A DNA stretch of 58,939 bases, from contig JANLQX010000514.1 in NCBI GenBank assembly GCA_031368095.1, positions 1-58,939 on the forward strand. The letters run 5' to 3'. This document shows, one piece after another, positions 1,167 to 28,104 of this stretch. Position 1 is the stretch's first letter. Each line of letters starts with the position of its first letter. The translations under genes were made by a program, and so were the position numbers. The DNA is from Actinomycetes bacterium (lineage in GTDB: Bacteria; Actinomycetota; Acidimicrobiia; Acidimicrobiales; JANYDT01). The notes below the pieces were generated by a model. The model was not told the origin of the DNA. It was given only the letters and a program-made list of their open reading frames with translations, and made no database searches.

Positions 1167-4100
1167 AACTCATTATAACAGGCGACTGGCAATTAGACAG
1201 CAACCCAGCTTACGACAAGGTGAACCCGCTCACGAACCGGAGCACTCGCTTTGATGAAAACGTGGAAACCATCGAACGGATGCTGGATGATGGAATGGCG
1301 AAGGGTGCTGACGGGCTTCTACATCTTGGCGACCTAACCGAGAACCGCGATCCGAAGGCGATCGAAATGGCGGCGGCGGCGCGGCTTTTTGAGCATGTGT
1401 TGAGAAAGGATCGCAGAGTTTGGGGAGTAGCAGGGAATCACGACGGGAGCTTTTTCGAGGTTTCGAGCTCCAGCTTTGCCCCTCTGGCAGCCATGCGACC
1501 CGATCAATTCACCTTGTTTCACAAAGTTACCTATGACCCAGGGCTGCGCATGCTCGCGGTACCGTATATTCACCGCGCAACTCCAGCGGAGATTCGTGCT
1601 TTGGTTGAGAGCGCCTATCCGGAGGATATAGGGCACGGTCCTGTTTTCGGAGCTGTCCATTATGGTTTGCGAGGCTGCACTGTTGGCGCCAGGAACCAGG
1701 TTCTACCGGGTGATTATCTAGGCCCAGACGAATTATTAGCACGACCCCTCGATCATGTTTTTGCCGGGCACATTCATAAAGCGCAGGAAGTTGATTTGAA
1801 CGGCGTGCCAGGATGGCATCCCGGATCGCCTATTATTTGCGATATGGGGGAAAGGGTAGACCGAAAAACCTACTTACTTTTTGATACTATTAGCCGAAAG
1901 GTGGAGGTTTTCGACGTGCCAAAGCGTCGAAATTGGGTTTCCGTGGTCTATGGGCCCGATATATCCAATAAAACCCCGGAATGGGGCCCGGAAGACCTTT
2001 TAAGGGTAACCGGTACCTATGAGAAGCCCGATTACCCCAAAGGAACCTTAGAGGCGGCTTTCAAGGCGGGCCTACCACGTCCTTTTGCCCTCGAAGTTGA
2101 GGTGAAAAGCGCCAAAGTCGAAAGGGCATTAAGATCGTTATCCGTGACCAGTGCGGGAGGTTTGCGGGAGGCTTTACAAACTTATGTCCGAGAGAAATAC
2201 CCACGGCAAAGCGATACCCCTGGGCCAATCGGCCCTGCCACAGAATTGGCATTGGCCGCGCTCCAAGAGCAAGGCGGATTGAGTTACTGTTCGCAGATTT
2301 ATCCGTCCGAGATCAGCATTTCGAACTTTATGACCTTTGCAAAGCTTACCCGCCAATTTGCAACAGGAGATCCAATGCTTATCGCCGGCGAAAATGGAGT
2401 GGGGAAGACCAACTTTTTCGAAGCGATTCTGTGGGCGCTTACCGGGCGAACATCCAAAGGCCTGGACTTGGCCGGTGTGGTGAGGCAAGGGACTCAGGAA
2501 GCCGAAGTGATTATGGGTTTACTTGGAAGCAACGACGATGAGGAAGACCAGCATTTCCGGATCTCTCGATCTGTAAAGCTATCGAAGGCAGGAAAGCCGT
2601 CTCAGCGTTTGACGCTTGAAAGGATGCATCCGGTAACCCTTGCATGGGATAAAACCCTTTCCGATGGGTCCCAGGCGGAAATCCAGGGCCGGATTGACGG
2701 ATTGGTTGGCGGATCCTTTCTTACCCTACGCACCACCAATTTCAAGTTCCAAAAGGACAACAGCCCGTTTATTGCGTGCCATCCTACCGAACGAAAGGCG
2801 GTAATCGGGGAGGTCACCGGCCTTGCGCCTTTAGGAAGGGCGTTCAAAGCTTTGGACGCAAAGAGGCTGGAAAGCGCTCGGGCATTTCAGGCGGGAAAGG
2901 ATCGCCTATCCGGAATGGTTGTCGCGGGCGAGGGTAATGACTCGCAAATCGCACAGTATCGACACGACGAAGAAATTGTTTCCGCTGAAATGGAGGCGGC
3001 GCGCGCCGAGGCGCCTTTGGCAGAAGCTGTAGTGGAAGCAGCAAATGAAGCGTCACGCAAGGCCAAGAGCGAAGCCATGGAGATTGAGACGCAATACCGC
3101 GAACAGCCAAATACGGAGGCTATAGCGAAAGCTTCGGCCCAGGCGCATGCCACGTTTGAAGCGGCGTACCAATCCGGACGGGCAGAGAAGGTTAAATCGC
3201 ATGGAGCGCTGAAGGCAAGCATCGCCAGTGCCATGGCAGAGTTAACCGAAACGAAGGTGCCGACGAAGGATGAGTTACAGGTTTTGGAGGCTAATTCGGC
3301 GGCATTGACCGGCGCCAGGGAATCGCTTCGCTCCGAAATGGCTTTAGCCCGCAACGATTTATCAACCGTAGAGGTGAGGGCTTCTGCATTGGGGGCGGCT
3401 GTCGCTACCCACGGGGTTGCTTTACGGAATGCAGAACACGAGCTGCATGCCCTAGGTGAAATCCAGGCCGAAGCGGAGGTAATAGCTGCTCGGGACATGG
3501 CGGAGGCGGAAGCGGCGGAATCCGTGGAGGCCTATAATCTCGCTCTCCAGGAGTGCGTCACAGTAAGAGAAGCGGCCAAGGCTTTGGCGGATAGGGCTGC
3601 ATCACTTTTGGCAGAGAAAAGCGCTTTCTCCGGCAAGGACGTGGGGGCGTGCTCCAGGTGCGGGCAGGCAATCGACTCCACCCACATGCTAATGGAGATA
3701 GCGCGTATCGACGGAGAAATTGAAGCCAACGCGCTGCTTATTCAGGAGGTCGCAACCAAAACCAAAGAGGCTAACACGGCCTTTATTGCTTCGACCGCAA
3801 GGAAAACCACGGCACAGGAGAACGCGAAAAAAGCGAGCGAAGCGTTCCACTCCTTGAAGCTTAAAACCCAGTTACACCAATCCATGACCGTGAAAGCGCA
3901 AGATCTTAAGAATTCCTTAGCTACAGCCGAGGCTGAGCACGCCAAAAAGAAAAGCGAATCGGAAAACTTGGTTAGGGTTGTGGCTAGGGTGTATGCCGAA
4001 CTGGCTTCTTCCGAAGCTCAGGTTGCTAAGGCTATTTTAGAGGCCACGACTGCGAGAGCAAGTGTGCAAAAAGCAGAATCTACCCGGGGGAGGCTGGAAG

Positions 4101-5020
4101 CCTTAAACGCCCAGTTGGAGGAATTGACGGCGGCAGGGATTCGCGAGCGAGCGGAATACGAAGCGGAAATTGTGAGACTGATTGTAGTCGCCGAGGAAGC
4201 GAAGCTAGCGCATGACGGGCAGGTAATTTTGTTGAGCATCCTTCGGGAAAAGATGGAGGCGGCCCGATTGGCGGTTGAGGCAGCCAATACCAATCTGACA
4301 ACCGTGACGCTGGCGCTCCATGCTTTGCGCACAAGGATCAGTGTGGCGGAGCAGCGAGCGGAGAGCATCAAAACCGCAATTGCTAGACTTGTCTCGCAGC
4401 AGAGCACGTTGGTAGAAGCCCGGTTCGAGTTGGGCTTGATGAAGGAGCGCTCGGAGATAGACGAATGCGCCGCAGGGCTCCTGGACGCGCGTAGCGGGCT
4501 ACCCGTGTACCTGATTGACCAAGCACTTCCATTCTTGGAGGATCGAATCAACTACTATTTAACCATGCTTGGCATGGAGCGCCTGGTCGTGCAGCTTAGT
4601 ACTTTGGCGGAGGATAAGGAAACCCTAGCGGTATTAATCGACAATGGGCGGCCAGGGCCCAGGCTGGACGTGGCGGCCTATTCCGGAGGCCAGCTTGACC
4701 GCGTGGAATACGGTGTTAAATGTGCCCTTGCGGACTTGGCAAGGCAGAGCAGAGGGGTAACCTTTGGGCTCGTTTGCTTTGATGAACCGAGTGGCGGGTT
4801 AAATGCGGCCGGTAAGGATGCGTTGATAAGCCTCCTGTACGAGCGCTGTTCGGCGTACCCCGTCACCATTTTGACCAGCCATGATGAAGCCCTTATACGC
4901 GCATTTCACAATCAAATCCGGTTTGGGCAGGGGCCTGATGAGGAAACTATTGTATTGGGGGAACAAGTAGGGTTAGAAATAAAGGAGAATTTAGTGAAGG
5001 AGATGGCCGCAGTCGATTAA
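1163..5020 (+). CDS. Fused SbcD-SbcC (Mre11-Rad50-like) nuclease-ATPase, 1285 aa
   Basis: N-terminal calcineurin-like phosphoesterase motifs: GDWQLD, LHLGDL, VAGNHDG, AGHIH. Then a Walker A (GENGVGKT), a long Ala/Glu-rich coiled coil with a central CSRC (nt 3650-3661, zinc-hook-like), a signature-like YSGGQ and a Walker B (LVCFDEPSGGL). Confidence 0.8.
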   Translation: MKLIITGDWQLDSNPAYDKVNPLTNRSTRFDENVETIERMLDDGMAKGADGLLHLGDLTENRDPKAIEMAAAARLFEHVLRKDRRVWGVAGNHDGSFFEVSSSSFAPLAAMRPDQFTLFHKVTYDPGLRMLAVPYIHRATPAEIRALVESAYPEDIGHGPVFGAVHYGLRGCTVGARNQVLPGDYLGPDELLARPLDHVFAGHIHKAQEVDLNGVPGWHPGSPIICDMGERVDRKTYLLFDTISRKVEVFDVPKRRNWVSVVYGPDISNKTPEWGPEDLLRVTGTYEKPDYPKGTLEAAFKAGLPRPFALEVEVKSAKVERALRSLSVTSAGGLREALQTYVREKYPRQSDTPGPIGPATELALAALQEQGGLSYCSQIYPSEISISNFMTFAKLTRQFATGDPMLIAGENGVGKTNFFEAILWALTGRTSKGLDLAGVVRQGTQEAEVIMGLLGSNDDEEDQHFRISRSVKLSKAGKPSQRLTLERMHPVTLAWDKTLSDGSQAEIQGRIDGLVGGSFLTLRTTNFKFQKDNSPFIACHPTERKAVIGEVTGLAPLGRAFKALDAKRLESARAFQAGKDRLSGMVVAGEGNDSQIAQYRHDEEIVSAEMEAARAEAPLAEAVVEAANEASRKAKSEAMEIETQYREQPNTEAIAKASAQAHATFEAAYQSGRAEKVKSHGALKASIASAMAELTETKVPTKDELQVLEANSAALTGARESLRSEMALARNDLSTVEVRASALGAAVATHGVALRNAEHELHALGEIQAEAEVIAARDMAEAEAAESVEAYNLALQECVTVREAAKALADRAASLLAEKSAFSGKDVGACSRCGQAIDSTHMLMEIARIDGEIEANALLIQEVATKTKEANTAFIASTARKTTAQENAKKASEAFHSLKLKTQLHQSMTVKAQDLKNSLATAEAEHAKKKSESENLVRVVARVYAELASSEAQVAKAILEATTARASVQKAESTRGRLEALNAQLEELTAAGIRERAEYEAEIVRLIVVAEEAKLAHDGQVILLSILREKMEAARLAVEAANTNLTTVTLALHALRTRISVAEQRAESIKTAIARLVSQQSTLVEARFELGLMKERSEIDECAAGLLDARSGLPVYLIDQALPFLEDRINYYLTMLGMERLVVQLSTLAEDKETLAVLIDNGRPGPRLDVAAYSGGQLDRVEYGVKCALADLARQSRGVTFGLVCFDEPSGGLNAAGKDALISLLYERCSAYPVTILTSHDEALIRAFHNQIRFGQGPDEETIVLGEQVGLEIKENLVKEMAAVD

Positions 5021-11263: not shown

Positions 11264-11736
11264 ATATTATGAAGAGCGGTTCGAAGGTGGTATGCCAAAA
11301 GTGTTTTGCAGTTCAGTCGCTACCTGTTGCAAATATTGAAGCTGGTCGGTACGCGGATTACGCCTGTGTGGAATGTTCCGAAAAGATGAATATTCTCAGC
11401 CTAGAAATCGTAGAAAGGCGAGTTTTGGAGCTGAAATGTTGGCCCGACAATTTCAGGCAGATCAAGCGAGGCGTTAAAACTTGCGATATACGAGTCAATG
11501 ACCGAGGCTACAAAGTAGGGGACACTCTTCACCTGCGGGAATGGATCCCCAGTGCCGATTACGATTTAGATGGGAGTGGAGAATACACTGGCCATTTTGT
11601 TTATGTCCAAGTCAAGCATGTGGTATGCGGTCAGCTTGGGATTCCACGGGGCCTCGCCGTCCTGTCGATTTCAAGCCCGCAGTTGTGGAGAAATAAAATA
11701 CTTGGTAAAAAAACTAAAAAGGTGTTGACCGTTTAA
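11260..11736 (+). CDS. Zn-ribbon + DUF3850 (ASCH/PUA-like) protein
   Basis: ATGA overlap with the upstream gene. Contains CQKC...CVEC, then LELKCWPDNFRQIKRGVKTCDIRVNDRGYKVGDTLHLREW, which is typical of DUF3850. Confidence 0.65.
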   Translation: MNIMKSGSKVVCQKCFAVQSLPVANIEAGRYADYACVECSEKMNILSLEIVERRVLELKCWPDNFRQIKRGVKTCDIRVNDRGYKVGDTLHLREWIPSADYDLDGSGEYTGHFVYVQVKHVVCGQLGIPRGLAVLSISSPQLWRNKILGKKTKKVLTV

Positions 11737-11791
11737 AACCTTTTGGGTAATTTAAAGAATATGTTATTCCATAGAATTAATAGGAATCAGA

Positions 11792-12319: not shown

Positions 12320-12531
12320 TGGAAGCAACATCCTCAACAAATGAATTACTCACAGCTACGGACCTTATGGACTGGCTACAGGTTGGGCCAAAATGGGTGG
12401 AGAAAAACACTCAGGCCCGCCGCATTCCCGGTCAATTCAAAGCGGGCCGTGCATGGCGCTATGACCGGGCCGCTATTGAAAAACAACGCTTAGCCACTGG
12501 CCAAATTCTCTTGCCGAAAAAGTCTAAATAA
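12316..12531 (+). CDS. xis: Excisionase / HTH_17-like DNA-binding protein
   Basis: LLTATDLMDWLQVGPKWVEKNTQARRIPGQFKAGRAWRYDRAAIE. It lies immediately upstream of and is coupled (TAATG) to the integrase. Confidence 0.65.
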   Translation: MMEATSSTNELLTATDLMDWLQVGPKWVEKNTQARRIPGQFKAGRAWRYDRAAIEKQRLATGQILLPKKSK

Positions 12532-13673
12532 TGCAACTTTATAATGGCCAGCCCATGGCGCCCATATCCGGAGGAAACTTCGCTATGGGCATTACCAAAC
12601 TAGCGCCAAACCATTTTTTCATCAAAGCACGGCATAAGACCAATGGGGAAGACCGTCGGGAACAGCTTCATTTTACTGGCACAAAAGCCCAGGCGGAAGA
12701 AAAGTACCTCGAAATCCTTAGACGCCTCCGCCGCGAAAAAAAGCCCGCTCAGGCCTTTGGCGACCTTTTAGCCGCATACTGTGAAAGCCGGGGCGGCGTT
12801 ATACCCCGGTCCCAGCGATCGATTTTCGAAGATCTTGCCAGGGATTTGGGCGGTGTAGATTTGGCGGCCATTGGCGACAAACTGCAAGAGTATGCCGGCA
12901 TACTTAGGCGGTTGCCGTCTAAAACCACGGGCCGCAAATTATCGGCTGCAAGCTTAAACCGGAGACGGGCCATGGTGGCAGCCTCATTAAACTTGGCTGT
13001 TGAGTTAAAAATTATCCCACACTCACCGCTTAACGCCGCCGTATGGCCAAAAGAGAATGAAGTCCCTCGGGATCGATTTTTGTCCCACGTCGAGTCTACG
13101 GCCCTGCTGAACGCTATTTCCATGTCGGCCCCGCACCTTTTGCCTGTGACGCAATTTGCCCTTCAAGTGCCGTGCCGCAAGGCAGAGCTTGTATCCATGA
13201 CCCGCGCCGATTTGGATCTCTTCCACAATGCGATCAGAGTCCACAACGGCACAACCAAGAACGAGGCTGGCGCATGGAAACCGATTCCTCCGAATATGGT
13301 GCCCTATTTCCGATCCATTCCTGCGGACTGTCCGTACCTTTTCTATCGCATGGAGCGCGGCCAATACGCACCCCTTGGGGATTTTAAACGATCTTGGGCG
13401 ACAGCCAAGCGTATTGCCGGAATTCAGAACCTGCGTTTTCACGATACTCGGCACATATCCGCTACTGCATTGGTGGACGCCGGCACCCCAGAAAGGGCCG
13501 TCATGGACATAGCCGGATGGCGCACAAATATGCTTTCGACTTATTATTCCAGTTCCAGCAAAAAGGCTTTAAGCCTTGTTAAATTTGGTAACGGAAGTGG
13601 CAACACAGGGGCAACTTTCGAGGGGGTTGGGCTAAAAACTGGTAAGAATGGGACAGAAAGGACGGTTTTGTAA
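12531..13673 (+). CDS. int: Tyrosine integrase
   Basis: C-terminal catalytic pattern LRFHDTRHISATALVDAGTPERAVMDIAGWRTNMLSTYY (H-x-x-R ... Y). It is followed directly by the attP tRNA fragment. Confidence 0.85.
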   Translation: MQLYNGQPMAPISGGNFAMGITKLAPNHFFIKARHKTNGEDRREQLHFTGTKAQAEEKYLEILRRLRREKKPAQAFGDLLAAYCESRGGVIPRSQRSIFEDLARDLGGVDLAAIGDKLQEYAGILRRLPSKTTGRKLSAASLNRRRAMVAASLNLAVELKIIPHSPLNAAVWPKENEVPRDRFLSHVESTALLNAISMSAPHLLPVTQFALQVPCRKAELVSMTRADLDLFHNAIRVHNGTTKNEAGAWKPIPPNMVPYFRSIPADCPYLFYRMERGQYAPLGDFKRSWATAKRIAGIQNLRFHDTRHISATALVDAGTPERAVMDIAGWRTNMLSTYYSSSSKKALSLVKFGNGSGNTGATFEGVGLKTGKNGTERTVL

Positions 13674-14048: not shown

Positions 14049-14804
14049 ATGAAAGAGCGACCGATTTTGTTTTCTGGCCCCATGGTGCGAGCGATACTCG
14101 ACGGGCGGAAAACTGTAACGCGGCGAGTGGTAAAGCCTCAGCCTCCAAGCGATTGTCAGGTATGGGCTGGATGGATCCTAGACTCAACATCAGGTGATGA
14201 CGTTGGGAAAGCCTCCTGGCATGACCAGGTTGGACCACTGGCCTACAAAACCCACCGGGTACGATGCCCCTATGGCCAGTTAGGGGATCATTTGTGGGTG
14301 AGGGAAGCTTGGTCTTATTACCGCCCATTTGCATCGGATCGAACAAACAAAATTCTGTACCGTGCCGACCTAGATAATTGCGGTCAATGCCCAGTCCAGC
14401 TAGATAACGACGTTGTTTTAGTTGATCCTCGGGACGGATGGAAACCATCTATCCACATGCCTAGATGGGCTTCCCGCATATCCCTAGAGGTTACAGAGAT
14501 TAGGGTACAGAGGTTGCAGGATATCACGGAGGATGAAGCCATCCGCGAGGGAGCGGTATGGCACGACTTCGGGCGGGAATGCGGCCATTTTGGAGCATGG
14601 CAGGGCGTGGGCGATTGCAAGGGCGAATTTCACCCCCAGCGCAACGGGTGGACGATGGAGCCACCTGCGGCGAGTGCGGGAAACTGCTTGCCGTCTGCTC
14701 GCATGGCTTTTGCGAATCTGATAAATAAAATCAACGGGCCAGAGACATGGGCATCAAATCCTTGGGTCTTCGTGATTTCGTTTAGGAGAATGTATGCACA
14801 ATAA
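14049..14804 (+). CDS. ASCH/PUA-like domain protein (widespread phage family)
   Basis: ILFSGPMVRAILDGRKTVTRRV...CPYGQLGDHLWVREAW...WKPSIHMPRWASRISLEVTEIRVQRLQDITEDEAIREG. Confidence 0.65.
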   Translation: MKERPILFSGPMVRAILDGRKTVTRRVVKPQPPSDCQVWAGWILDSTSGDDVGKASWHDQVGPLAYKTHRVRCPYGQLGDHLWVREAWSYYRPFASDRTNKILYRADLDNCGQCPVQLDNDVVLVDPRDGWKPSIHMPRWASRISLEVTEIRVQRLQDITEDEAIREGAVWHDFGRECGHFGAWQGVGDCKGEFHPQRNGWTMEPPAASAGNCLPSARMAFANLINKINGPETWASNPWVFVISFRRMYAQ

Positions 14805-15327
14805 ACCACATACCGAAAACGCAAAGGCAAAAATGAGAGCCGCTCGTCTAGGCGTACCAGCTCTCTGGAAGCATCGTCCGTCTAGGATTGTTGGCGGAGC
14901 GGTAGAGTACCGGTGTGGCCGATGCGGTCTTTTTTTCCAGCGCGGCAATTTCTATAAAAACAATCGAACAATTCTTGGTATAAAAAACCAATGCAAGGCG
15001 TGCCATATTGAGGGTTCTATTAGAACGCGAGATATCAAAAAAACAAGAGAAGCAAACAAAATCTACGCTCGCGCCAAACGCATCAAGGATCCGGAGGCGG
15101 TTCGGGCTATGGAGCGCAAAAGAGTTCGCGTCAAGGACGACCGAGTAGAGGCTAGGTCCATACTGAATGATGCCGTAAAATCCGGAAAGATACTAAAGCC
15201 AAGCGACTGCTCTTCCTGCGGCCATCATGGCCGGATTACTGGACATCATCAAGATTATTCTAAGCCCTTGGAAGTCGAGTGGTTATGCTACGAATGCCAC
15301 GGGAAGGAACATCGTCATGCAGTATAA
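14794..15327 (+). CDS. NUMOD3-like + HNH-like Zn/His-motif protein
   Basis: N-terminal HTENAKAKMRAARLG is NUMOD3-like. The C-terminus reads CSSCGHHGRITGHHQDYSKPLEVEWLCYECHGKEH. Confidence 0.55.
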   Translation: MHNKPHTENAKAKMRAARLGVPALWKHRPSRIVGGAVEYRCGRCGLFFQRGNFYKNNRTILGIKNQCKACHIEGSIRTRDIKKTREANKIYARAKRIKDPEAVRAMERKRVRVKDDRVEARSILNDAVKSGKILKPSDCSSCGHHGRITGHHQDYSKPLEVEWLCYECHGKEHRHAV

Positions 15328-16078: not shown

Positions 16079-16332
16079 GCGATGCGCAAAACGATCCTTT
16101 GAGCTCTGATGCGCCAAGTTACGGTCCATGGCGCTGTTTTGATTGCAAGAAAATCATTGAAAAAGGTGGGCTACACGCGTACCGGGCTACAGGGGTTGAG
16201 TTTCCTGGAGTTAATGAGAACGGCTTAGTAACGCATTTTGTGGGGCATAGGTACCTGTGTATTCCTTGCAACAAAGAGCGCGACGACGCGGAAATACGAA
16301 ACCGATTGCACAGGCCACAAGGCAGGAGATAA
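16075..16332 (+). CDS. Small Zn-finger-like protein
   Basis: ATGA overlap with the upstream gene. Contains CFDC...CIPC pairs. Confidence 0.55.
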   Translation: MSDAQNDPLSSDAPSYGPWRCFDCKKIIEKGGLHAYRATGVEFPGVNENGLVTHFVGHRYLCIPCNKERDDAEIRNRLHRPQGRR

Positions 16333-16336
16333 AAGC

Positions 16337-16747
16337 ATGAACCGCATCAACCACCCCATCCACTACGGCGGCGACACCCTATACGAAGCCATAAAGGTTA
16401 TCGAGGCTTGGGGCTTAAACTTCAACCTTGGAAACACTGCCAAGTACATCTCCCGAGCAGAACTCAAGGGAAAGCCCGTGCAAGACCTGGAGAAAGCTCT
16501 TTGGTACTTAGCCCGGGAAGTCCACAACCGGGGCGGAAACATTCACCACGCTATTCCAACCCCTGAAGGTGAAATCTTGGTGGCCCTAAGGTTTGCCTTG
16601 GAACACATCACGGAATGGGAAATTGACGATGACCGAGGAGTGGCAGAGGCGTTCGAAGTCCTCACCAAGGTCGCTGATATTCTAAACAACGCGCTTGAAG
16701 CAGTAACCCCGAACTTGGCGGATTCCAAGAAAACAAAGGAGACGTAA
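16337..16747 (+). CDS. DUF3310-family protein
   Basis: INHPIHYGGDTLYEAIKVIEAWGLNFNLGNTAKYISRAELKGKPVQDLEKALWYL matches the DUF3310 pattern. ATG 16337 is preferred over the in-frame upstream start at 16238. Confidence 0.7.
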   Translation: MNRINHPIHYGGDTLYEAIKVIEAWGLNFNLGNTAKYISRAELKGKPVQDLEKALWYLAREVHNRGGNIHHAIPTPEGEILVALRFALEHITEWEIDDDRGVAEAFEVLTKVADILNNALEAVTPNLADSKKTKET

Positions 16748-19024: not shown

Positions 19025-19065
19025 AATTAATACACATAAAGCATAAAGGTGTGCTATATTAAACA

Positions 19066-19392
19066 ATGAAGGCGGATAAAATGAGCGGCAACTCAAAGCG
19101 CGTACTTAGTATGACTTTGCATCGAAAATGGTTCGACGCTATTGCGAAGGGGAAGAAGAAGAAGGAATACCGAGACTCCAAGGATTACTGGCTTAAAAGA
19201 TTTTTCGATCCCGAAGGTCGATTGATCAAGTACGACGAAGTGCATTTCAAGAACGGGTACTCGCCGGAAGCCCCATTCATGCGTGTGGAATGGTTAGGCA
19301 TGAAGAAGATAACGGTTGAAGGATCGGAGGTCTGCGCGATTCAACTAGGAAACGTGCTGGAGATCCTTAATTGGAAGGGGCCGGCAGCATGA
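19066..19392 (+). CDS. ASCH domain protein
   Basis: MTLHRKWFDAIAKGKKKKEYRDSKDYWLKRF...YDEVHFKNGYSPEAPFMRVEW. It is preceded by ATAAAGGTG (19043-19051). Confidence 0.6.
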   Translation: MKADKMSGNSKRVLSMTLHRKWFDAIAKGKKKKEYRDSKDYWLKRFFDPEGRLIKYDEVHFKNGYSPEAPFMRVEWLGMKKITVEGSEVCAIQLGNVLEILNWKGPAA

Positions 19393-20252
19393 ACCGCCCA
19401 ATCTGGACCACCGAAAAGCGTAAAGTCAAAGACCTTATTCCCTGGCCGAGAAACCCCAGGCGCATCACCGAAACAAAGATGATGCACCTCAAGGAAAGCC
19501 TGAATAAGTTCGGGTACGCCGATCCAGTAATCGCAAATGTGGACGAACAGCTTATTGCGGGTCACATGCGCCTCAAGGCGATGGCGATTCTTAAAATGGT
19601 AACACCGGATACCGATGTCGATGTTCGCATTCCTAATCGGCGCCTTACCGAAGACGAAGCCAAAGAACTGGCTGTTCGTCACAATGGCAAATTTGGCGAG
19701 TGGAATATGGAAATGCTATCCGCAGATTTTACCTATGGAGAACTGCTTAATTTCGGCTTTGAAAAATTCGAACTAGGTTTCGACATGGGTAACGAGCCGC
19801 AAAAAGAATCTCATGGGGAAGACCAGGATCCCGAAGACGACGAAGCCGACGGCAAAGAGCCTCAGGACAGCCAGGCGGGCGACAGCGCAGTCAATAACGC
19901 AGAAATTCCATCCGGGAATCGCCAGGGCGGGCCGAGCGTGGAACCGGAGGCTTTGGACCTGAAGGACATCGAAGAGAATAACCCAAAACTACAGGCGTTT
20001 TTAGATCGCCGTCGCGCAGCAAAAGAGCGCGGCAAGGATAAGGGAGAATTGAATTTCTGGCTCTGCATAGTTTTTCAATCCTACGAACAGAAAATGGAGT
20101 TTTCCACCAAACTAGGGCTGGAAACAAAGTACGGCATGTATGCCAATGGAGAGGAGATTGCGAAAAAAATTGCTCTATCCATTACCGAAACGACTCAAAA
20201 ACCTGTCCAGGTGCCGCTAGACAAAGTACTATCAAAGATGGTTCAACAATGA
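19389..20252 (+). CDS. ParB-like nuclease domain protein (IbrB-like)
   Basis: ATGA overlap with the ASCH gene. LIPWPRNPRRITETKMMHLKESLNKFGYADPVIANVDEQLIAGHMRLKA; acidic low-complexity middle region. Confidence 0.7.
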   Translation: MNRPIWTTEKRKVKDLIPWPRNPRRITETKMMHLKESLNKFGYADPVIANVDEQLIAGHMRLKAMAILKMVTPDTDVDVRIPNRRLTEDEAKELAVRHNGKFGEWNMEMLSADFTYGELLNFGFEKFELGFDMGNEPQKESHGEDQDPEDDEADGKEPQDSQAGDSAVNNAEIPSGNRQGGPSVEPEALDLKDIEENNPKLQAFLDRRRAAKERGKDKGELNFWLCIVFQSYEQKMEFSTKLGLETKYGMYANGEEIAKKIALSITETTQKPVQVPLDKVLSKMVQQ

Positions 20253-20268
20253 GTGGAGGTGATACTGA

Positions 20269-21156
20269 ATGGCAAAGAAGAAAGCAGCTAAAAAACTCAA
20301 GCCCGTCCCGCCCAAAAAGCGTGGCGCCAAGCCCCTAAAAAAGGCGGAGGCAAGAAAGGCAAAGGCGGAGGCAAGGGAGGCGGCGGAGGCGGTTAAGCCT
20401 GCGGTGATTCTCGAAACCGACAAGTCTCGTTCGCTCTGCGAAACCATATCGCTTGAGTCGGACGGGACTTGTTTTCTTGGGTTCAGTCGCGGAAAAGACA
20501 GCATTGCTGCATGGCTGTACCTGCGCCGGTTCTTTAAACGTGTAATCCCATTTCACGTAGCGACGGTACCGGGTCTGGGTTTCGTGGACCGAAGCCTAGC
20601 CTATTATGAGGCGTTTTTTCAAACTCCAGTGCTGCGCCTCATGGACGGGGATGTGATCAAGGATTTAAACCGCATGATCTATCAGCCGGAATCGGACGAA
20701 GCCGAGATCGACGATTTAGAGCTTTGGACCTATAACAAACACAATATTTTGGACCTTTTGCGCAAGGTTTACAACATTCCAAATGCCTGGGGAGCGTTCG
20801 GCATCAATATGACGGACAGCCTGGACAGGCGAATATATGTAGCGCAATGCCAAGGCCGCCATGATACGTGGAAGACGTTCTATCCATGCTGGGATTGGAC
20901 GAAGGAACAGATCCTTGCTTCTATAAATGCCGTGGGTCTGGCTCTGCCGGGCGACTATCTGCTCGCTTCGCGCACAGTTGCAGGAACACCGTCTTATCGG
21001 CACATCAAACGCATGCGAGATATGTACCCGGAAGACTTCGAAAAGATAACCCACATGTTCCCGTACGTATACGCCGAATTGGCCAGGCAAGAATTTCGAG
21101 AGGCTATGCCTAGATTCCAGAACGCTGTCAAGACCAAGAAGATCAAGGCCGCCTAA
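20269..21156 (+). CDS. PAPS-reductase-family (PP-loop ATPase, IbrA/DndC-like) protein
   Basis: Lys/Ala-rich N-terminus, then the PP-loop-like segment CFLGFSRGKDSIAAWLYL. Confidence 0.65.
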   Translation: MAKKKAAKKLKPVPPKKRGAKPLKKAEARKAKAEAREAAEAVKPAVILETDKSRSLCETISLESDGTCFLGFSRGKDSIAAWLYLRRFFKRVIPFHVATVPGLGFVDRSLAYYEAFFQTPVLRLMDGDVIKDLNRMIYQPESDEAEIDDLELWTYNKHNILDLLRKVYNIPNAWGAFGINMTDSLDRRIYVAQCQGRHDTWKTFYPCWDWTKEQILASINAVGLALPGDYLLASRTVAGTPSYRHIKRMRDMYPEDFEKITHMFPYVYAELARQEFREAMPRFQNAVKTKKIKAA

Positions 21157-21158
21157 AA

Positions 21159-21602
21159 ATGCTTAAGGACTACAACGGGTTTGGCGGAGACGATCGATAC
21201 CGCTTAAGCATTGCTCATCGTAAGGCAGTGGCCGATAAAACGCTTCCCAATCCAGAAAGGTGCGAAATGTGCTCGCAGACAGCGGGTCTGATTGTTCGCC
21301 ACAACGAGGATTACGATCAGCCAGTAAAAGGGGCTCACGCCCTTTGCGTTGAGTGCTATATCCGCCTGCGCACCAGATTTTTCAAACCCCGCTCCTGGCA
21401 GAACTGGCTTTCTCGCATTTTGGCCGGCGCAATGTCAAAGCCTTATCGAAGGGTCAGCGAATGCTGTTTGGCGCTTATGGGGGAAGACGATCCGAAAGTA
21501 GTCCAATGGGAAAACCCAAGGGCCTTTTGGTACCAAAGGCTTTCCGTTCGCCCACTGGATTTTCGGAAACTGCCAGAGGACGTAAAGGAGAGGCTAAGGT
21601 GA
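21159..21602 (+). CDS. Zn/His-motif protein (same C-x2-C...H-x-EDY...LC-x-EC motif as 14794..15327)
   Basis: CEMCSQTAGLIVRHNEDYDQPVKGAHALCVECY. Confidence 0.55.
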   Translation: MLKDYNGFGGDDRYRLSIAHRKAVADKTLPNPERCEMCSQTAGLIVRHNEDYDQPVKGAHALCVECYIRLRTRFFKPRSWQNWLSRILAGAMSKPYRRVSECCLALMGEDDPKVVQWENPRAFWYQRLSVRPLDFRKLPEDVKERLR

Positions 21603-21784
21603 CAACAGACCGAGAAATTGATTTAGAAGCGGCATTAGAATACTACAAATCCGTAGCTATCGTATGCGGATTTGCGATCAAGGAGTTGACGACATGGGCA
21701 GATGGCGAGGCGTCCAAGGGAAATAACCCGGTACCGAAACAAATTTTGGAGAGGCTGAAAAAAGCTCAGACGGGAGAGCAATGA
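21599..21784 (+). CDS. Hypothetical small protein
   Basis: GTG 21599 overlaps the upstream stop (GTGA). The long ORF from 21353 overlaps 21159..21602 out of frame and is not preferred. Confidence 0.5.
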   Translation: MTTDREIDLEAALEYYKSVAIVCGFAIKELTTWADGEASKGNNPVPKQILERLKKAQTGEQ

Positions 21785-22790: not shown

Positions 22791-23050
22791 CCGGCTACAC
22801 AATCAACAAGGGTGAGCGCCTGCGCGGGAACGTCAACGAGTCTCATGTGATGCTAAACCTGCCTCCATGCTCCATGCCAATGCCAAACGGAGACGGGACT
22901 AATGCCCCTACCTGGAGCAGCCCCCATCACCATACTGTTTTCAGCAGCGGAGAGCGAGAGGCCAGGAATCGCCGCGTATCAGCGCAGAACAGAAGAGTAC
23001 GCAACAATGCGAAAAAAGCAAGCGAAGTAAAACCCGTGGGAGAAATCTGA
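22787..23050 (+). CDS. Hypothetical protein
   Basis: ATGA overlap at the start and TGATG overlap at the end. Confidence 0.45.
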   Translation: MTGYTINKGERLRGNVNESHVMLNLPPCSMPMPNGDGTNAPTWSSPHHHTVFSSGEREARNRRVSAQNRRVRNNAKKASEVKPVGEI

Positions 23051-23523
23051 TGAACGAGGCAAGTATAATCAAAGCGCCAAGTAGGATAAAACCAGTCGAA
23101 TTGTTTTACAAATGCGTCCATTTCAAGATACAGGAGCTTGTGGACAAGGAAACCTTTCAGGCCCTTGGGGAATCCGCCTGGATGCTTTTTGACCGGAACC
23201 TGCTTGGAGCTATGGACAGGATTCGCGAGAGGTACGATGTGGAAATCACGGTTAACAACTGGGCCACAGGCGGGCCTTTCTCGCAAAGAGGGTTCCGGTC
23301 CAGCGATTCGACAACCGGAGCCAAGCTATCCGGGCACAGAAGAGGCCAGAACTTGGATTTTGACGTGAAAGGCAAGACGGCGGACTGGGTGAGAAAAGAC
23401 ATCTTGGACAACAAGGATCATATTGATTTCATGTTGATTACGAGAATGGAGGTTGGAATCTCCTGGGTGCATATAGGCGTGGAGAACGTGCCTGGACGCA
23501 TTCTGCTTTTTAACCCGGCATAG
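23050..23523 (+). CDS. Peptidase M15-family (DD-/LD-peptidase) cell-wall hydrolase; endolysin candidate
   Basis: SGHRRGQNLDFD (H-x6-D) and a later WVHI give a Zn-ligand pattern typical of M15A/VanY-like enzymes. Confidence 0.65.
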   Translation: MNEASIIKAPSRIKPVELFYKCVHFKIQELVDKETFQALGESAWMLFDRNLLGAMDRIRERYDVEITVNNWATGGPFSQRGFRSSDSTTGAKLSGHRRGQNLDFDVKGKTADWVRKDILDNKDHIDFMLITRMEVGISWVHIGVENVPGRILLFNPA

Positions 23524-24043: not shown

Positions 24044-24571
24044 ATGTCGGAAGATCTTAAGAAAACAGGGAGGGTTCGAGTTCCGGCAAAGCACAAAAGG
24101 AACTTCGAGGAGACCCATGAAATACTCACGGAAGCCTATGTGACGTTTCTAACCAATGGCTACCCGAAATACCCCAACCCAAAAATGAAGCAGCCGACGA
24201 TCAAGCAGCTTTGCGAAATCGCAGAAATGAACAAGAGGACAGTGGAAAGACACCTGGCGGAACTCGACAAAGACCTGAACTTCACCCGTCGAGCAAGCAA
24301 GTACAGACTGGCATCCGATGTGATTATGAAGTCATGGCTAAAAGCAGCAGTCAAAGGGAACGTCGCTGCCGGTGAGAAATTCATGCAGGTATCCGAACAG
24401 ATTAATTTCGGGTCCATTGTGAAAATAGAGACTGGAGATCTTTATCCCGGGCCGGATTTGGTGAAGCTAGGCAAAGAAGACTTGATAGCCTATAAAGCCC
24501 TTATGAAGAAGATGGCCGGAAAGGCGGAAAGTGGTAACTCTCAACCCGCACCACGAACTACACAGGATTGA
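24044..24571 (+). CDS. terS: Terminase small subunit candidate (HTH)
   Basis: Position immediately upstream of and overlapping TerL. HTH-like segment PTIKQLCEIAEMNKRTVERHLAEL. Confidence 0.55.
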   Translation: MSEDLKKTGRVRVPAKHKRNFEETHEILTEAYVTFLTNGYPKYPNPKMKQPTIKQLCEIAEMNKRTVERHLAELDKDLNFTRRASKYRLASDVIMKSWLKAAVKGNVAAGEKFMQVSEQINFGSIVKIETGDLYPGPDLVKLGKEDLIAYKALMKKMAGKAESGNSQPAPRTTQD

Positions 24572-25973
24572 GGTCGAAGAAGCCCGTCGAGAACTGATTC
24601 CGTACATTAAGGGCAATATTCCCGGGTACATAGACGGTTGGGTGCACCAAAAGATTGCCGCAGCCCTGGAGCAGTTTTCAAGGGATGTGGTAGCCCTGAA
24701 ATCCCCTCGTTTAATGCTATTTATGCCCCCCCGGCACGGAAAAAGTGAATTATCGAGCCAAAACTTTCCAGCCTGGCACCTCGGGCATCACCCCGAGCAT
24801 GAAATCATTGCTGCATCCTACAACATCGACAAGGGCGAGGACTATTCCGAAAAGGCTTTAGAGTACGCGCAGGGCGAGTGGCATAAGCAGGTGTTCCCAG
24901 GCTTCGAATTCAAGGGTAAGAAGCAAAGCCGTTCCCACTGGAAGACCAAAAAAGGCGGAAAGATGCTCGGTACTGGTGTGGGTGGCGCCATTACCGGTAA
25001 AGGAGCGCACATTGTAATCCTGGATGACTTGGTGAAGAACTGGGAAGAGGCTATTTCCAAGACCAAGCGAGAAACAGCCTGGAACTTCTACACGTCCACC
25101 ATTCGCACGCGCCTTGCCCCAGGCGCTGGCATAATTCTGATCATGACCAGGTGGCATGAGGACGACGTGGCCGGCAGGCTCCTCAAAAAGATGGAGGAGA
25201 ACGCGGCAATCCGCCGATGGCAGATAATCGAGTTCCCGGCAATCGCGGAGAAGGACGAAGAGTTCCGAAAGAATGGTGAAGCCCTGCACCCCGAGCGGTA
25301 TGGGTTGCCAGATTTGAAGGAAATCGAGGTTGAGGTTGGGCCCCGCGTCTGGATCTCTCTGTATCAGCAAAAGCCGCGTCCGCTTGGTGGACAGTATATC
25401 CGAGCTTCCTGGTTCAAGCGAATTTCCGTAGCGGAAATGCCAAAGCCGACGCGAGAGGTGCGGTTCTGGGATCTTGCTGTAAAGGCAGCCCAGGCAAACG
25501 ATGAGTCTGCCAGTGTGCGAATGTTCATTGTGTCCAAGATCCCAGAAGGCGGACGGACTCCGTTGACATACGTGTACCTTCGAATGATGACAGCCTACAA
25601 AAAGGAATGGCCGGACAGCAAAAAGACCATTATTGCCCTGGCTTTGGCCGAGAAAATACCGATCGGCATCGAAGCCAATTCAGCTTTCGAAATCGCCGTG
25701 CAGGAGATCCGCGCCGACCTTAAGGGAAAGATCAATGTGACTGGAATCTCGATGTCCACGGACAAGCTCACGCGGGCATTGCCGTGGATGGACTTGGCTG
25801 AGGCTGGCCGAGTGTTCCTAGTTGACGGCGAAGGAGCTGATTGGATACCCGCTTTTCTTTCGGAGTGCGAAAGCTGGGATCCGCTGGAGAGCGCTCAGGC
25901 CGACAATCGAATTGACGCGGTTTCCGGAGCATATATGATGGTTGGAGTTAAAAAAATGGCCAAAATTATATGA
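24531..25973 (+). CDS. terL: Terminase large subunit
   Basis: Walker A-like MPPRHGKSE, Walker B IVILDDLV, and a C-terminal nuclease-like region. GTG start follows GGAAAGG. Confidence 0.85.
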   Translation: MVTLNPHHELHRIEVEEARRELIPYIKGNIPGYIDGWVHQKIAAALEQFSRDVVALKSPRLMLFMPPRHGKSELSSQNFPAWHLGHHPEHEIIAASYNIDKGEDYSEKALEYAQGEWHKQVFPGFEFKGKKQSRSHWKTKKGGKMLGTGVGGAITGKGAHIVILDDLVKNWEEAISKTKRETAWNFYTSTIRTRLAPGAGIILIMTRWHEDDVAGRLLKKMEENAAIRRWQIIEFPAIAEKDEEFRKNGEALHPERYGLPDLKEIEVEVGPRVWISLYQQKPRPLGGQYIRASWFKRISVAEMPKPTREVRFWDLAVKAAQANDESASVRMFIVSKIPEGGRTPLTYVYLRMMTAYKKEWPDSKKTIIALALAEKIPIGIEANSAFEIAVQEIRADLKGKINVTGISMSTDKLTRALPWMDLAEAGRVFLVDGEGADWIPAFLSECESWDPLESAQADNRIDAVSGAYMMVGVKKMAKII

Positions 25974-26097: not shown

Positions 26098-28104
26098 GTG
26101 GAGTTTTCCGACTTCATGCGAGATCTCCGTTACGATAACGGCGATGGGACAGATGTTCGTCAGGCCTATAAGAAAAATGTTTGGGTTTATGCATGCGTTC
26201 GAGCCATTTTCAATGGGCAGAATACCGTACCTTGGTACCTCCGCGATGAACGAACCCAAGAGCGCGTTAAAAAAACCAATCCATGGCAGCGCCTATTCCT
26301 GAATCCTAACCCGCTTATGGAATGCATGCAGGTCTGGAAGATGCATACCATACTTTTCGAAACCAAGGGTGAGTCTTTTTGGCTTTTGTTCGATGCGTAC
26401 ATGAAGCCTGTTGCGCTAAATGCGGTTCCGGATTCAATGTGGGTTTACGGGCCCGATAAAGTAACGCCATGGATTGATACCGATACACAGACATTCAAAG
26501 GGTGGAAGTACAAAGCACGCCTAGACCGGGAAGAGTACCAGTACTTCCGACCATGGCAGGTGCTGCGATTCTTCGACGTGGACCCAGACAATGTATTCAG
26601 GGCTTTAGCGCCTATCGAGCCAGCATCAATGTCCATTAAGGTTCAGGGCAAGGCTATGGGATTCAATGAGTCCTATTTGGACAATGGAGCAAAGGTTGAC
26701 GGCGTAATTAATATCGACGCTGAGACTTATCAGGCAATGGGTGAAGAAGGCTTGGAGGCCATGCAGGAACGCTTTGCCGATAGGTACGGCGGATACCGTA
26801 AGAACGGAAAGACCCCAATTATCGCGGGCGGAGATTTCAAGCCTACTGGTTCCGGTCCAAAAGACATGGACTTCCAGAACCTTTCGGAATGGACAAGAGA
26901 GGAGATCATCGGTGCTTTTGGTGTGCCAGAACTACTGGTAGGCCTAACTAAAAATTTAAACATGGCGACTTCTCAAGAAGAAATCAAGATGTTTTTCACT
27001 AACAATGTCATTCCAAAGCTTGACTACTGCGCTTCCGTAATCAACAACAAGCTTCTGCTTGGAACCGGTGTGGAGTTCTATTGGGATAAGCACGCAATTA
27101 AAGCCCTTCAAGATGCCTTGGACTCAAAGGTGGCCAACGCTGTTGAGCTTGTTACTGTTCTCGGGTACTCAACCAACGAAGTAAACAGAAAATTGGAATT
27201 GGGCATGGATGAAATCAAGGAGAAGTGGGCGGATACGCCTGTGGACCCAAGAACACTGAACCAGGCGGCCCCGACTGTTCCTCCAGGAAAAGGCAGCAAA
27301 AAGTCCGAAGAGATGTCCGATCCAGAATTGATTAGCCTGTCCGCCGATCGAGACGTGGCGATGGAATACTGGAACGATGTTGTGAGGCCGGTCGAAAATC
27401 GAATGCGGCCTAAAATTGTGTCGTACTGGCTACGGATGAAGAAAGACCAGCTCGAAAGGTTTGATTCGAAGTTTGGGAAGGAAGCGTCTGTATTATCAAA
27501 GTCATTCGAGGATGATTTGCAGCAGGCGATGTTCGACAGCGAGAAGTGGGACAACAAGCTTCGATCTGAAAGTCTTCCTTTCCACCAACAGGCGTTCACT
27601 AATTCGGTCGCTCATTTGCGCGAAGAAATCGACACGTTCTATGTATTCAAGCCCGGTTCGGAAAAGGTGGCCGCGCTCCTGGCACAAAAGAACAGCCGAA
27701 TCACCGGAGTGAACGACACTTTTAAAGAATCCCTGCTTGCCAGTCTGGCCGAGGGAGTAAAGCTGGGCGAGAGCATTCCTGTGCTTCGCGGTCGAATAGT
27801 CACGCAGTTCAGCGCGAAGATTGACACGGCGAATACCATTGCCAGGACCGAGACGGCGCAAGCCGCTGGAATGGTTCGCCACATGGCAATGGAGGATGAG
27901 GGCCTACTGAAAAGGTGGGTATCCGCCCATGATGGCCATGAGAGAAGCGCCCACCTCCGGTTTAATAACCTGCCGGCAAAAAGCTTGAATTACGAATATG
28001 CCAAGGGCTTGAAATTCCCCTGCGATCCTGATTGCAGTGACGCGGCACAGGTATGCAACTGTCGATGCTTTGAGAAAGCGGAGCGAAGGCCGGAAGCTCA
28101 GTGA
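26098..28104 (+). CDS. Portal protein fused to a Mu F-like (SPP1 gp7-like) minor head domain
   Basis: The N-terminal ~400 aa are portal-like (GESFWLLFD...). The C-terminus TIARTETAQAAGMVRHMAMEDEGLLKRWVSAHDGHERSAHLRFNN...CNCRCF matches Phage_Mu_F. Confidence 0.75.
   Translation: MEFSDFMRDLRYDNGDGTDVRQAYKKNVWVYACVRAIFNGQNTVPWYLRDERTQERVKKTNPWQRLFLNPNPLMECMQVWKMHTILFETKGESFWLLFDAYMKPVALNAVPDSMWVYGPDKVTPWIDTDTQTFKGWKYKARLDREEYQYFRPWQVLRFFDVDPDNVFRALAPIEPASMSIKVQGKAMGFNESYLDNGAKVDGVINIDAETYQAMGEEGLEAMQERFADRYGGYRKNGKTPIIAGGDFKPTGSGPKDMDFQNLSEWTREEIIGAFGVPELLVGLTKNLNMATSQEEIKMFFTNNVIPKLDYCASVINNKLLLGTGVEFYWDKHAIKALQDALDSKVANAVELVTVLGYSTNEVNRKLELGMDEIKEKWADTPVDPRTLNQAAPTVPPGKGSKKSEEMSDPELISLSADRDVAMEYWNDVVRPVENRMRPKIVSYWLRMKKDQLERFDSKFGKEASVLSKSFEDDLQQAMFDSEKWDNKLRSESLPFHQQAFTNSVAHLREEIDTFYVFKPGSEKVAALLAQKNSRITGVNDTFKESLLASLAEGVKLGESIPVLRGRIVTQFSAKIDTANTIARTETAQAAGMVRHMAMEDEGLLKRWVSAHDGHERSAHLRFNNLPAKSLNYEYAKGLKFPCDPDCSDAAQVCNCRCFEKAERRPEAQ

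Follow-up and report, generated by a model that had tools for sequence, protein, structure and literature searches.

A near-obligate phage gene pair beside terminase genes encodes a cysteine-less PP-loop protein and a small partner domain

Does a run of four phage genes that encode, in order, an ASCH-like protein, a ParB-like protein, a PP-loop protein of the PAPS-reductase family and a zinc-finger protein form a single system, and if only some of its parts belong together, what might those parts do? The genes, referred to here as g1 to g4, lie at 19066–21602 on the + strand of contig JANLQX010000514.1 (assembly GCA_031368095.1), the whole analysed stretch of which, 58,939 nucleotides long, is called the window; it is a phage genome with nearly all of its genes on the + strand. 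An initial annotation had treated the four genes as one candidate DNA- or RNA-modifying or modification-sensing system. Comparison with related loci gives a narrower answer. By the counts given below, the conserved unit is g3 together with the C-terminal ~85 residues of g2, a domain (here CTD) that the annotation did not contain, whereas the four-gene system is not conserved and the ParB N-terminal domain (ParB-N) of g2 is an optional N-terminal addition to the CTD. The features discussed are as follows.

19031–19060, + strand: promoter-like site from a consensus scan, TACACA-18 nt-TATATT with a TG extension; ATAAAGGTG lies inside it at 19043–19051
19066–19392, + strand: g1, small ASCH-like (PUA-like) protein, 108 aa (103 aa from 19081), accessory gene
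19389–20252, + strand: g2, three-part protein, 287 aa, domain boundaries from iterated hidden Markov models (HMMs)
19398–19781, + strand: ParB-N of g2, predicted nucleoside triphosphate (NTP)-binding fold of the methyltransferase-associated type, residues ~4–131, placed by PHROG, PDB and PADLOC matches
19794–19961, + strand: acidic low-complexity linker of g2, rich in Asp, Glu, Pro and Gln, read from the translation
19962–20207, + strand: CTD of g2, ~85 aa, uncharacterised family, conserved companion of g3
20269–21156, + strand: g3, PP-loop ATP pyrophosphatase of a cysteine-less clade of the PAPS-reductase family, 295 aa, predicted catalytic subunit
20269–20403, + strand: Lys/Ala-rich basic N-terminal tail of g3, ~45 aa, from the translation, with low predicted local distance difference test (pLDDT) values
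20485–20502, + strand: PP-loop motif S73-R-G-K-D-S78 of g3, the loop predicted from conservation in alignment A1 to bind the alpha and beta phosphates of ATP
21159–21602, + strand: g4, degenerate HNH-like zinc-finger protein, 147 aa, with a CxxC...H48-N...CxxC motif at ~21264–21356

The conserved unit of the block

All four open reading frames (ORFs) are present on the + strand as annotated, coupled and behind the ATAAAGGTG box, and the sequence details that drew attention to them, namely PWPRNPRR and IAGHMRLKA (Box II-like) in g2, the acidic g2 linker, and FSRGKDS and the Lys/Ala-rich N-terminus in g3, were all recovered. The domain identities, ASCH-like, ParB-N, PAPS-reductase-family PP-loop and zinc finger, likewise held up. 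Conservation of the block as a whole is a separate matter, for which two sets of loci were used: a viral set of 80 loci encoding g3 relatives, whose six-frame translations were searched with HMMs iterated from each domain of the window, and an independent genome set of 48 loci from bacterial genomes. Counting of matches and iteration of the HMMs drew on one and the same viral set; the genome set serves as the independent check. Related loci were found through peptide patterns (the PP-loop and FYPCxDW motifs), which limits the sample to proteins keeping these motifs, and their ORFs are stop-to-stop segments with undefined exact gene starts.

The CTD was found in 76 of the 80 viral loci, always on the same strand as g3 and directly adjacent to it in all but two; in the four loci lacking it, the g3 match lies near a contig end or on a contig of only ~4 kb. 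The pairing is equally close to obligate in the bacterial genomes, where the CTD stands beside g3 on the same strand in 47/48 loci, the exception being a truncated contig. ParB-N, in contrast, occurs in about 20 of the 80 viral loci and in a single genome locus, and the outer genes fare worse: homologues of g1 and of g4 are absent from all 137 related g3 loci, with no g1-type ASCH gene in either the 80 viral or the 48 genome loci. Because the CTD is nearly always present, ParB-N is confined to a minority and neither g1 nor g4 recurs, we take g3 plus the CTD as the conserved unit. The conserved partner of the PP-loop protein is the C-terminal part of g2, and a physical interaction between the CTD and g3 would be in keeping with their linkage.

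Two arrangements of the pair are seen, and they follow g3 similarity. The window shows the first, which is that of the closest g3 relatives: the gene just before g3 encodes a ParB-N protein with the CTD at its end. Most loci, with more distant g3 relatives, have the second, a stand-alone CTD protein of ~140 aa, sometimes tandemly duplicated, encoded immediately downstream of g3. Cultured phages are among the carriers. In Pasteurella phage Pm86 the pair corresponds to ORF51 and ORF52; the Gordonia phages with the pair include VanLee and Cafasso, the latter encoding it as gp166 and gp167, with two CTD copies in gp167; and in Lactobacillus reuteri phage LR1 the CTD ends a ParB-N protein labelled 'nuclease', two genes downstream of the enzyme. 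The 141-aa protein that follows the LR1 PAPS-reductase gene was considered as the CTD and set aside after a poor alignment, the CTD being at the end of the next gene.

The CTD itself belongs to a family of at least 948 protein clusters by profile search, nearly all of them 'hypothetical' and mostly stand-alone proteins of the ~140-aa kind, carried by prophages of Actinomycetota, Pseudomonadota, Bacillota and Planctomycetota. Neither the CTD nor the stand-alone proteins match any Pfam family; PHROG scans gave nothing for the stand-alone proteins and, for the CTD, the g2-like phrog_9353 only; a profile search of the PDB gave no sequence match, and Foldseek with the CTD model returned nothing below E=3.6. 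The AlphaFold2 (AF2) model of the domain (pLDDT 78) holds a confident yet unpaired beta-strand, which would be expected if the domain and a partner together formed a complete sheet. In the stand-alone CTD proteins (alignment A4) the domain is preceded by an acidic motif that is conserved at the N-terminus, P.P......TGD.E.DS.AEL, and is similar in character to the acidic linker of g2; the linker itself yielded no homologues in HMM iteration.

The remainder of g2 points in a particular direction. The protein has no Pfam match, including to PF02195, helix-turn-helix (HTH) or ParB_C families, yet it matches ParB-like PHROGs at 1e-20 to 5e-25, the 'DNA methyltransferase' family phrog_498 at 3.7e-24, the NCBIfam model for Noc at 4e-4 and, in the PDB, Spo0J/ParB at 0.015 with the GxxR box aligned. 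Specifically, residues 10–170 of g2, containing ParB-N, match the first 170 positions of the PADLOC model MTase_II (1.2e-13), and 6 of 12 database homologues of this ParB-N carry the methyltransferase domain PF01555 (N6_N4_Mtase); there are also homologues with PF02195. By these matches, the ParB-N of g2 is the subtype found N-terminally in phage ParB–DNA-methyltransferase fusions, and g2 looks like such a protein in which the catalytic domain has been swapped for an adaptor to a different enzyme. A canonical partition ParB was rejected: there is no HTH or ParB_C domain, a linker and the CTD follow ParB-N, and the neighbours are ASCH and PP-loop genes. No parA gene lies beside g2, the search for one elsewhere in the window being non-exhaustive.

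The two outer genes are best treated as accessories. The g1 protein matches Pfam ASCH (PF04266) at E=0.006 and 17.7 bits, against a gathering threshold of 21.2 and over only 24 residues, and matches phrog_625 at 2e-16; 47 of its 106 close homologues match Pfam ASCH and 3 match the related DUF3850, within a large family of 1795 representative homologues or clusters, and a PDB sequence search gave only noise. These matches mark g1 as an ASCH-like protein; its gene is an accessory one and no conserved partner of g3. Elsewhere, g1-type ASCH genes pair with ParB-N and not with g3: a g2-type ParB-N is nearby in 5 of 32 loci with g1-type ASCH genes. In locus L141, a viral contig with neither g3 nor CTD, the two are fused in one protein (934–1707, + strand), and a different ASCH subtype is N-terminally fused to g3 in two homologues (P0039 and P0058). 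The connection of ASCH to the g3 core is looser, yet it is real when domain networks are considered.

For g4, the motif reads CxxC...HN.DY...CxxC (C36xxC39, H48-N49, H60 and C63xxC66, with Tyr rather than His after the last Cys pair). The protein matches the 'endonuclease' family phrog_2340 at 3e-4 and the HNH-type region of another window protein, encoded at 14794–15327, at 7e-6 by BLASTP; it has no Pfam match, and a PDB sequence search gave only noise. It is best described, from these similarities, as a degenerate HNH-like zinc finger that is not a conserved partner of g3. The 14794–15327 protein (+ strand), an endonuclease of HNH type, has 177 aa and matches phrog_2340 at 6e-26; its N-terminus bears a zinc ribbon like that of Lar or endonuclease VII, and it and the zinc-finger motif of g4 are distantly paralogous.

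A PP-loop family without conserved cysteines

The predicted catalytic subunit of the pair is g3. Its family comprises 113 homologous clusters, and across 106 unique members the residues of S73-R-G-K-D-S78, invariant in alignment A1, are 94–100% conserved, with S-x-G-K-D-S at 98–100%, D183 and R187 at 100% and Y230 at 99%. The AF2 model (pLDDT 88) has the Rossmann-like alpha/beta fold of PP-loop ATP pyrophosphatases, followed by a family-specific helical extension in the C-terminal region. By both alignment and model, the catalytic machinery appears intact. Foldseek (E=1e-6 to 1e-4, probability 1.0, TM-scores about 0.4) recovers TtuA, NcsA, TilS, LarE, NAD and GMP synthetases and the PAPS domain of FAD synthase, in addition to viral PAPS-reductase-like models. 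The basic N-terminal tail, which might contact nucleic acid, has counterparts as basic or Ala-rich extensions only in the closest homologues.

In sequence, g3 matches PHROG 'PAPS reductase' families at 8e-12 and 4.5e-10, with no Pfam match at E<=0.1 (PF01507 and DUF3440 included), no NCBIfam match and no PADLOC match; PDB searches with the protein or its profile gave nothing meaningful. Some relatives come nearer to PF01507, with LR1 above the cut-off at 1e-12, P0085 at 1.4e-5 and Pm86 at 6e-4. The most telling feature of the family is the absence of a conserved cysteine: no column of the 106 members holds Cys in more than 37%. Cysteine-independent PP-loop enzymes are of two kinds: TilS, GMP synthetase and NAD synthetase place AMP on the oxygen of a carbonyl or carboxyl group and then let a nitrogen nucleophile substitute, and FAD synthetase and CysD transfer AMP to phosphate or sulfate; CysH and the TtuA-type thiolases depend on conserved cysteines. 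The most likely chemistry for g3, judged from its residues, is either adenylation followed by substitution in the manner of TilS and the synthetases, or adenylyl transfer like that of FAD synthetase and CysD.

This bears directly on two readings that involve sulfur. One is that g3 inserts sulfur into DNA, as phosphorothioate or otherwise, in the style of DndC, SspD and BrxP. Through its relatives, g3 falls into PF01507, the broad family of DndC and SspD, and Dnd systems have a ParB-superfamily partner, DndB (PMC12707154; PMC10853773). DndC, however, requires a cysteine triad and dyad, and SspD likewise depends on conserved cysteines (PMC10853773), of which the g3 family keeps no counterpart; g3 matches none of the PADLOC models for DndC, SspD or BrxP, its relatives doing so marginally (1.6e-3 to 2e-3); and no desulfurase, DndD/E or SspB/C is among the neighbour Pfam families listed (25 of 38 and 25 of 31 families), which are instead terminases, DUF932, HNH and similar. 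Because conserved cysteines, matches to these enzymes and listed desulfurase or Dnd/Ssp partners are all missing, sulfur chemistry is unlikely for g3, and we consider sulfur insertion into DNA very improbable. The other reading makes g3 an auxiliary metabolic gene, a genuine PAPS reductase with which the phage would raise sulfate assimilation in its host, which is the usual annotation of phage homologues in databases and the literature. Here too the catalytic cysteine is missing, and there is no CysH, NCBIfam or Pfam match; moreover, an obligate small partner and a fixed site beside terminase genes would be unexpected of such a gene. True PAPS reduction by g3 is likewise unlikely, and the metabolic role as a whole strikes us as extremely improbable.

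A third reading takes the structural matches at face value: g3 would be a TilS- or TtuA-like enzyme that modifies a tRNA of host or phage, or some other RNA, with ASCH as an RNA-binding module. The top PDB fold matches, TtuA, NcsA and TilS, are indeed tRNA enzymes, and for ASCH and other PUA-like domains the classical association is with RNA (Iyer et al. 2005, to the extent cited in PMC12704722). The TM-scores of these matches nonetheless reflect the shared PP-loop core, ASCH is present only sporadically, the methyltransferase-linked ParB-N points to DNA, and the closest sequence family is PAPS-reductase-like, whose nucleic-acid-directed members DndC and SspD act on DNA. Weighing these points, we hold a role in RNA modification to be decidedly unlikely.

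Position beside the terminase genes

The location of the pair is the most striking new observation, and one that the initial annotation did not contain: synteny with terminase genes is kept across unrelated packaging modules and across phyla. In the viral loci, terminase subunits dominate the genes within 2.2 kb downstream of the pair. The large subunit (TerL) is found there in 53 of ~67 non-redundant loci, the matches being divided among four different Pfam families (TerL_ATPase 24, Terminase_6N 17, Terminase_3 11 and GpA 1), and small-subunit families account for 31 further matches. In the genome set, TerL lies 1–3.5 kb downstream on the same strand in 42/48 loci. There are variations on this theme: in L084 and the L001 group the pair has a TerL gene of GpA type on one side and the portal gene on the other, in Pm86, a lambdoid phage, it comes after the genes for Q, holin and lysozyme with the terminase genes next in line, and in the Gordonia phages it is at the right genome end. 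The four TerL families are unrelated, and common descent of the flanking genes does not explain this synteny. We regard this cysteine-lacking clade, travelling with the CTD beside terminase genes, as a defined two-protein system on the evidence of its sequences and gene neighbourhoods.

It is natural to ask whether the pair is a packaging accessory that works with terminase, on DNA ends, on the pac or cos region or on a packaging protein, and leaves no protective mark across the genome. Every element of the synteny just described favours this, and so might the predicted chemistry, since the cysteine-less FAD synthetase and CysD adenylylate phosphate and sulfate oxygens, a reaction that would fit a 5′-phosphate. 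Against it, no known packaging system contains a PP-loop enzyme, and most phages with the same terminase families do without the pair, so that it is no core packaging factor. Furthermore, accessory genes, those for methyltransferases among them, are often located upstream of the small-subunit gene; in L135, for example, a ParB–methyltransferase gene lies ~2 kb upstream of a candidate terminase pair (two genes not annotated as terminase). We therefore judge a dedicated packaging role unlikely, though it would, if correct, reveal an unknown ATP-dependent step in packaging.

The layout of the window raises yet another question, that of regulation. The four ORFs are translationally coupled: the g2 ATG overlaps the g1 stop as ATGA, a 16-nt gap holding a GGAGGTGA ribosome-binding site separates g2 from g3, and only 2 nt separate g3 from g4. 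For g1, the alternative ATG at 19081 has a better Shine-Dalgarno sequence (AAGGCGGA) than the start at 19066. A 61-codon ORF follows (21599–21784, + strand), its GTG start overlapping the g4 stop as GTGA, and the coupled chain thus runs on past g4, beyond the reported end at 21602. Downstream, packed + strand genes lead to an endolysin-like gene (23050–23523), TerL (24531–25973) and the portal gene (26098–28104). Upstream, the ATAAAGGTG box recurs: it occurs in exact form six times in the window, once on the - strand and otherwise on the + strand, where a uniform-base estimate predicts ~0.45 occurrences, and there are 27 copies with at most one mismatch against 12.5 ± 3.6 in shuffles. The copies at 19043 and 55643 have in common the tail ATAAAGGTGt..t.tatTAAACA. 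The g1–g4 block plausibly starts a transcription unit at this predicted promoter-like box.

Other copies of the box are differently built. In the sites at 304–345, 54031–54072, 57369–57410 and 11716–11757 the box directly precedes TTGAC(A/C), followed ~17–18 nt on by a -10-like hexamer that is TATATT at three of the four sites. The box has one mismatch to ATAAAGGTG at 57369 and at 11716, and ATTATT often lies upstream of these four sites, which resemble strong sigma-70 promoters. The ATAAAGGTG boxes at 19043, 28230 and 55643 have no -35 element. This difference suggests that the window has two classes of promoter with an upstream element in common.

That the pair heads a block of late and structural genes behind a promoter-like box is one of the points in favour of an IbrAB-like regulator, in which ParB-like and PAPS-reductase-like proteins would co-activate the late (structural and lysis) genes of the phage. 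IbrA and IbrB are reported, from genetics, to be co-activators of prophage eib genes, which offers a precedent for such a pair. ParB-family proteins such as KorB also control transcription (cited in PMC13229309). On the other side, Pm86 has its own Q antiterminator and carries the pair downstream of the lysis genes, inside the late operon, which weakens the idea that the pair occupies the position of lambda Q as a late regulator. In addition, the invariant ATP-pyrophosphatase motif points to catalysis rather than to DNA binding alone, ParB is missing from about three-quarters of the viral set and from almost the whole genome set, and g3 lacks the DUF3440 domain of IbrA. A regulator of this kind seems quite unlikely to us.

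Several further observations concern the neighbourhood of the pair and the nature of the phage. In actinobacterial prophages (L030–L062) a DUF932 protein of ~430 aa is encoded roughly 1.2 kb upstream of the pair, and DUF932 proteins make up 19 of the 141 ORFs scanned on the upstream side; a Mom-family gene lies upstream in one locus, and a set of GATase, Peptidase_C26 and Amidoligase_2 genes in one. A DNA similarity search found no nucleotide-level relative of the window among GenBank phages. At the protein level, the window TerL matches positions 6725–7945 of L097 (tblastn, 9e-66), a prophage in the Planctomycetota metagenome-assembled genome (MAG) contig JAVBTZ010000079.1 that also carries the pair, and the three closest genomic relatives of g3 are all in Planctomycetota MAGs. 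Because of this TerL match and these g3 relatives, the host of the window phage may be a planctomycete.

The early genes, which are co-directional, include a tyrosine recombinase/integrase (12531–13673, + strand) and a DUF5131 protein (phage Gp37/Gp68-like; 10424–11263, + strand), and the phage may be temperate. A gene for a Gp3-like recombination directionality factor (366–1166) stands ahead of one for a 1285-aa polypeptide (1163–5020, + strand) in which a calcineurin-like phosphoesterase resembling Mre11/SbcD is joined to an ATPase head of SMC/RecF type resembling Rad50/SbcC. Finally, 16238–16747 (+ strand) encodes a 169-aa DUF3310 protein; DUF3310 is the segment matched by PHROG 'nucleotide kinase' families, a label probably carried over from fusion partners.

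A possible DNA-modifying module and its relatives

In light of these considerations, we tentatively favour, at somewhat less than even confidence, a reading in which g3 and the CTD constitute an adenylating nucleic-acid modification module, acting most likely on DNA and targeted through ParB and ASCH. Its core would be a two-component enzyme of g3 and an obligatory CTD of ~85 residues, in which g3 would use ATP to adenylate an oxygen of the substrate. In the window the CTD is joined through the acidic linker to a ParB-N of the kind otherwise fused to phage DNA methyltransferases. This ParB-N, aided by the upstream ASCH protein and the basic tail of g3, would load or hold the complex on phage DNA while the CTD docks the PP-loop enzyme; g3 would then adenylate the DNA, either at a phosphate or at the carbonyl of a nucleobase, and the AMP would be replaced by a nucleophile other than sulfur. 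The outcome would be a covalent mark on progeny DNA, made when and where packaging happens, that helps the phage to evade host restriction or defence. We infer the DNA substrate, the chemistry and the anti-defence role from the following lines of argument.

DNA is preferred as the substrate because the core has repeatedly gained nucleic-acid-targeting modules (ParB-N through the CTD, ASCH, and the basic tail), because the ParB-N of g2 is of the methyltransferase-associated subtype, and because there are precedents for both halves of the arrangement. On the ParB side, a phage ParB homologue with an NTP-binding and a C-terminal domain and no DNA-binding domain is a required activator of a DNA thymine dioxygenase on double-stranded DNA (PMC13229309), and a published survey reports frequent fusions of phage ParB folds with DNA methyltransferases and with DUF3850, a PUA-like domain (PMC12704722). 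On the enzyme side, the members of the PAPS-reductase family known to target nucleic acid, such as DndC, SspD and BrxP, do so on DNA and together with a small partner that binds it (PMC12839542; PMC12707154). The general suggestion of a nucleic-acid-modifying role, made when the genes were annotated, is in this sense plausible.

A number of points weigh against this reading. None of the phages with the pair is reported to contain a modified nucleotide, and no source of the nucleophile, such as an amidotransferase or a desulfurase, is encoded nearby in the window. About 75% of the viral loci and 47/48 genome loci have neither ParB nor ASCH, so the argument for DNA targeting draws on a minority of the family. 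The best structural matches of g3 are tRNA-modifying enzymes, and ASCH is classically RNA-binding. The evidence for an interaction of the CTD with g3 is gene linkage only. Lastly, generic genes for DNA modification do not typically keep such tight synteny with terminase genes, which may instead speak for a function in packaging. The fuller version of the proposal, that this is a new and widespread two-component phage enzyme performing non-sulfur DNA modification by adenylation and substitution, coupled to packaging and with ParB-N and ASCH as optional loaders, is advanced as a more doubtful possibility.

Should the pair prove to modify DNA, it would represent a new enzyme class for phage genome modification and anti-restriction, and would extend what is emerging about ParB folds as assistants to enzymes that modify DNA; were the modification itself new, phage DNA modification would gain a new chemical class and the pair would be the second case, after the thymine dioxygenases, of ParB folds recruited for DNA-modifying enzymes. 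Our literature searches found, in agreement with the initial annotation, no biochemical function established for phage pairs of ParB-like and PAPS-reductase-like proteins, and no paper that assigns a function to the g3 clade or describes the CTD. Phage PAPS-reductase-like genes are routinely labelled as helpers of sulfur metabolism or as 'IbrA-like'; for this clade the vague annotation can now be replaced by a testable two-protein system, with Pm86, LR1, VanLee and Cafasso as cultured carriers.

How, then, does the pair stand in relation to known systems? Because the defining features of each were looked for and are absent from it, g3 appears to lie outside the IbrA, DndC, SspD, BrxP and CysH families, and the analogies to IbrAB and DndC first drawn for this locus hold at the superfamily level and no further. 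Lambda NinC resembles g3 in being a non-essential phage protein with a PAPS-reductase-family label; it differs in sitting in the nin region and not beside terminase genes, and was rejected as a relative (hhalign probability 0.3%). IbrA consists of a PAPS_reduct domain followed by DUF3440 (PF11922). The likeness to IbrA and IbrB is that of a PAPS-reductase-superfamily protein encoded beside a ParB-N protein in a phage or prophage, whereas g3 matches neither PF01507 nor DUF3440 and belongs to a separate cysteine-less clade, a distinction drawn from domain content and not from direct sequence comparison. In addition, the partner of g3 is defined by the novel CTD and not by ParB, which is dispensable in most family members.

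With DndC, SspD and BrxP, the pair has in common the PP-loop/PAPS-reductase superfamily and the combination of a catalytic subunit with a small DNA-directed partner (DndE, or SspB/DUF4007). It is set apart from them by the lack of iron-sulfur or persulfide cysteines, of an HMM match and of desulfurase or ATPase partners, and by a CTD that is unrelated to any solved structure. TilS, GMP synthetase and FAD synthetase are like g3 in fold and in the ATP-binding loop and, given its lack of catalytic cysteines, offer the most likely style of chemistry; beyond the PP-loop core they have no detectable sequence relationship to it.

The closest sequence relatives of the g2 ParB-N are the ParB-N–DNA methyltransferase fusions (PF02195 with PF01555; phrog_498; MTase_II), and their genes, too, sit among the accessory genes that precede the structural ones. 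In place of their methyltransferase domain, g2 has the linker and the CTD, and catalysis would come in trans from g3. A similar logic is seen in 5mYOX176 and ParB176 (PMC13229309), where a ParB with an NTP-binding N-domain and a C-terminal domain, and no HTH, is encoded beside the enzyme that it would be expected to assist. There the enzyme is an Fe/2OG dioxygenase rather than a PP-loop protein, the CTD of the present system also occurs without ParB, and 5mYOX176 and ParB176 have been tested by experiment, whereas g2 and g3 are known from sequence alone. By analogy, the locus may be likened both to ParB-assisted DNA-modifying enzymes of this type and to the logic of a catalytic subunit joined to a DNA partner that is exemplified by DndC with DndE and by SspD with SspB.

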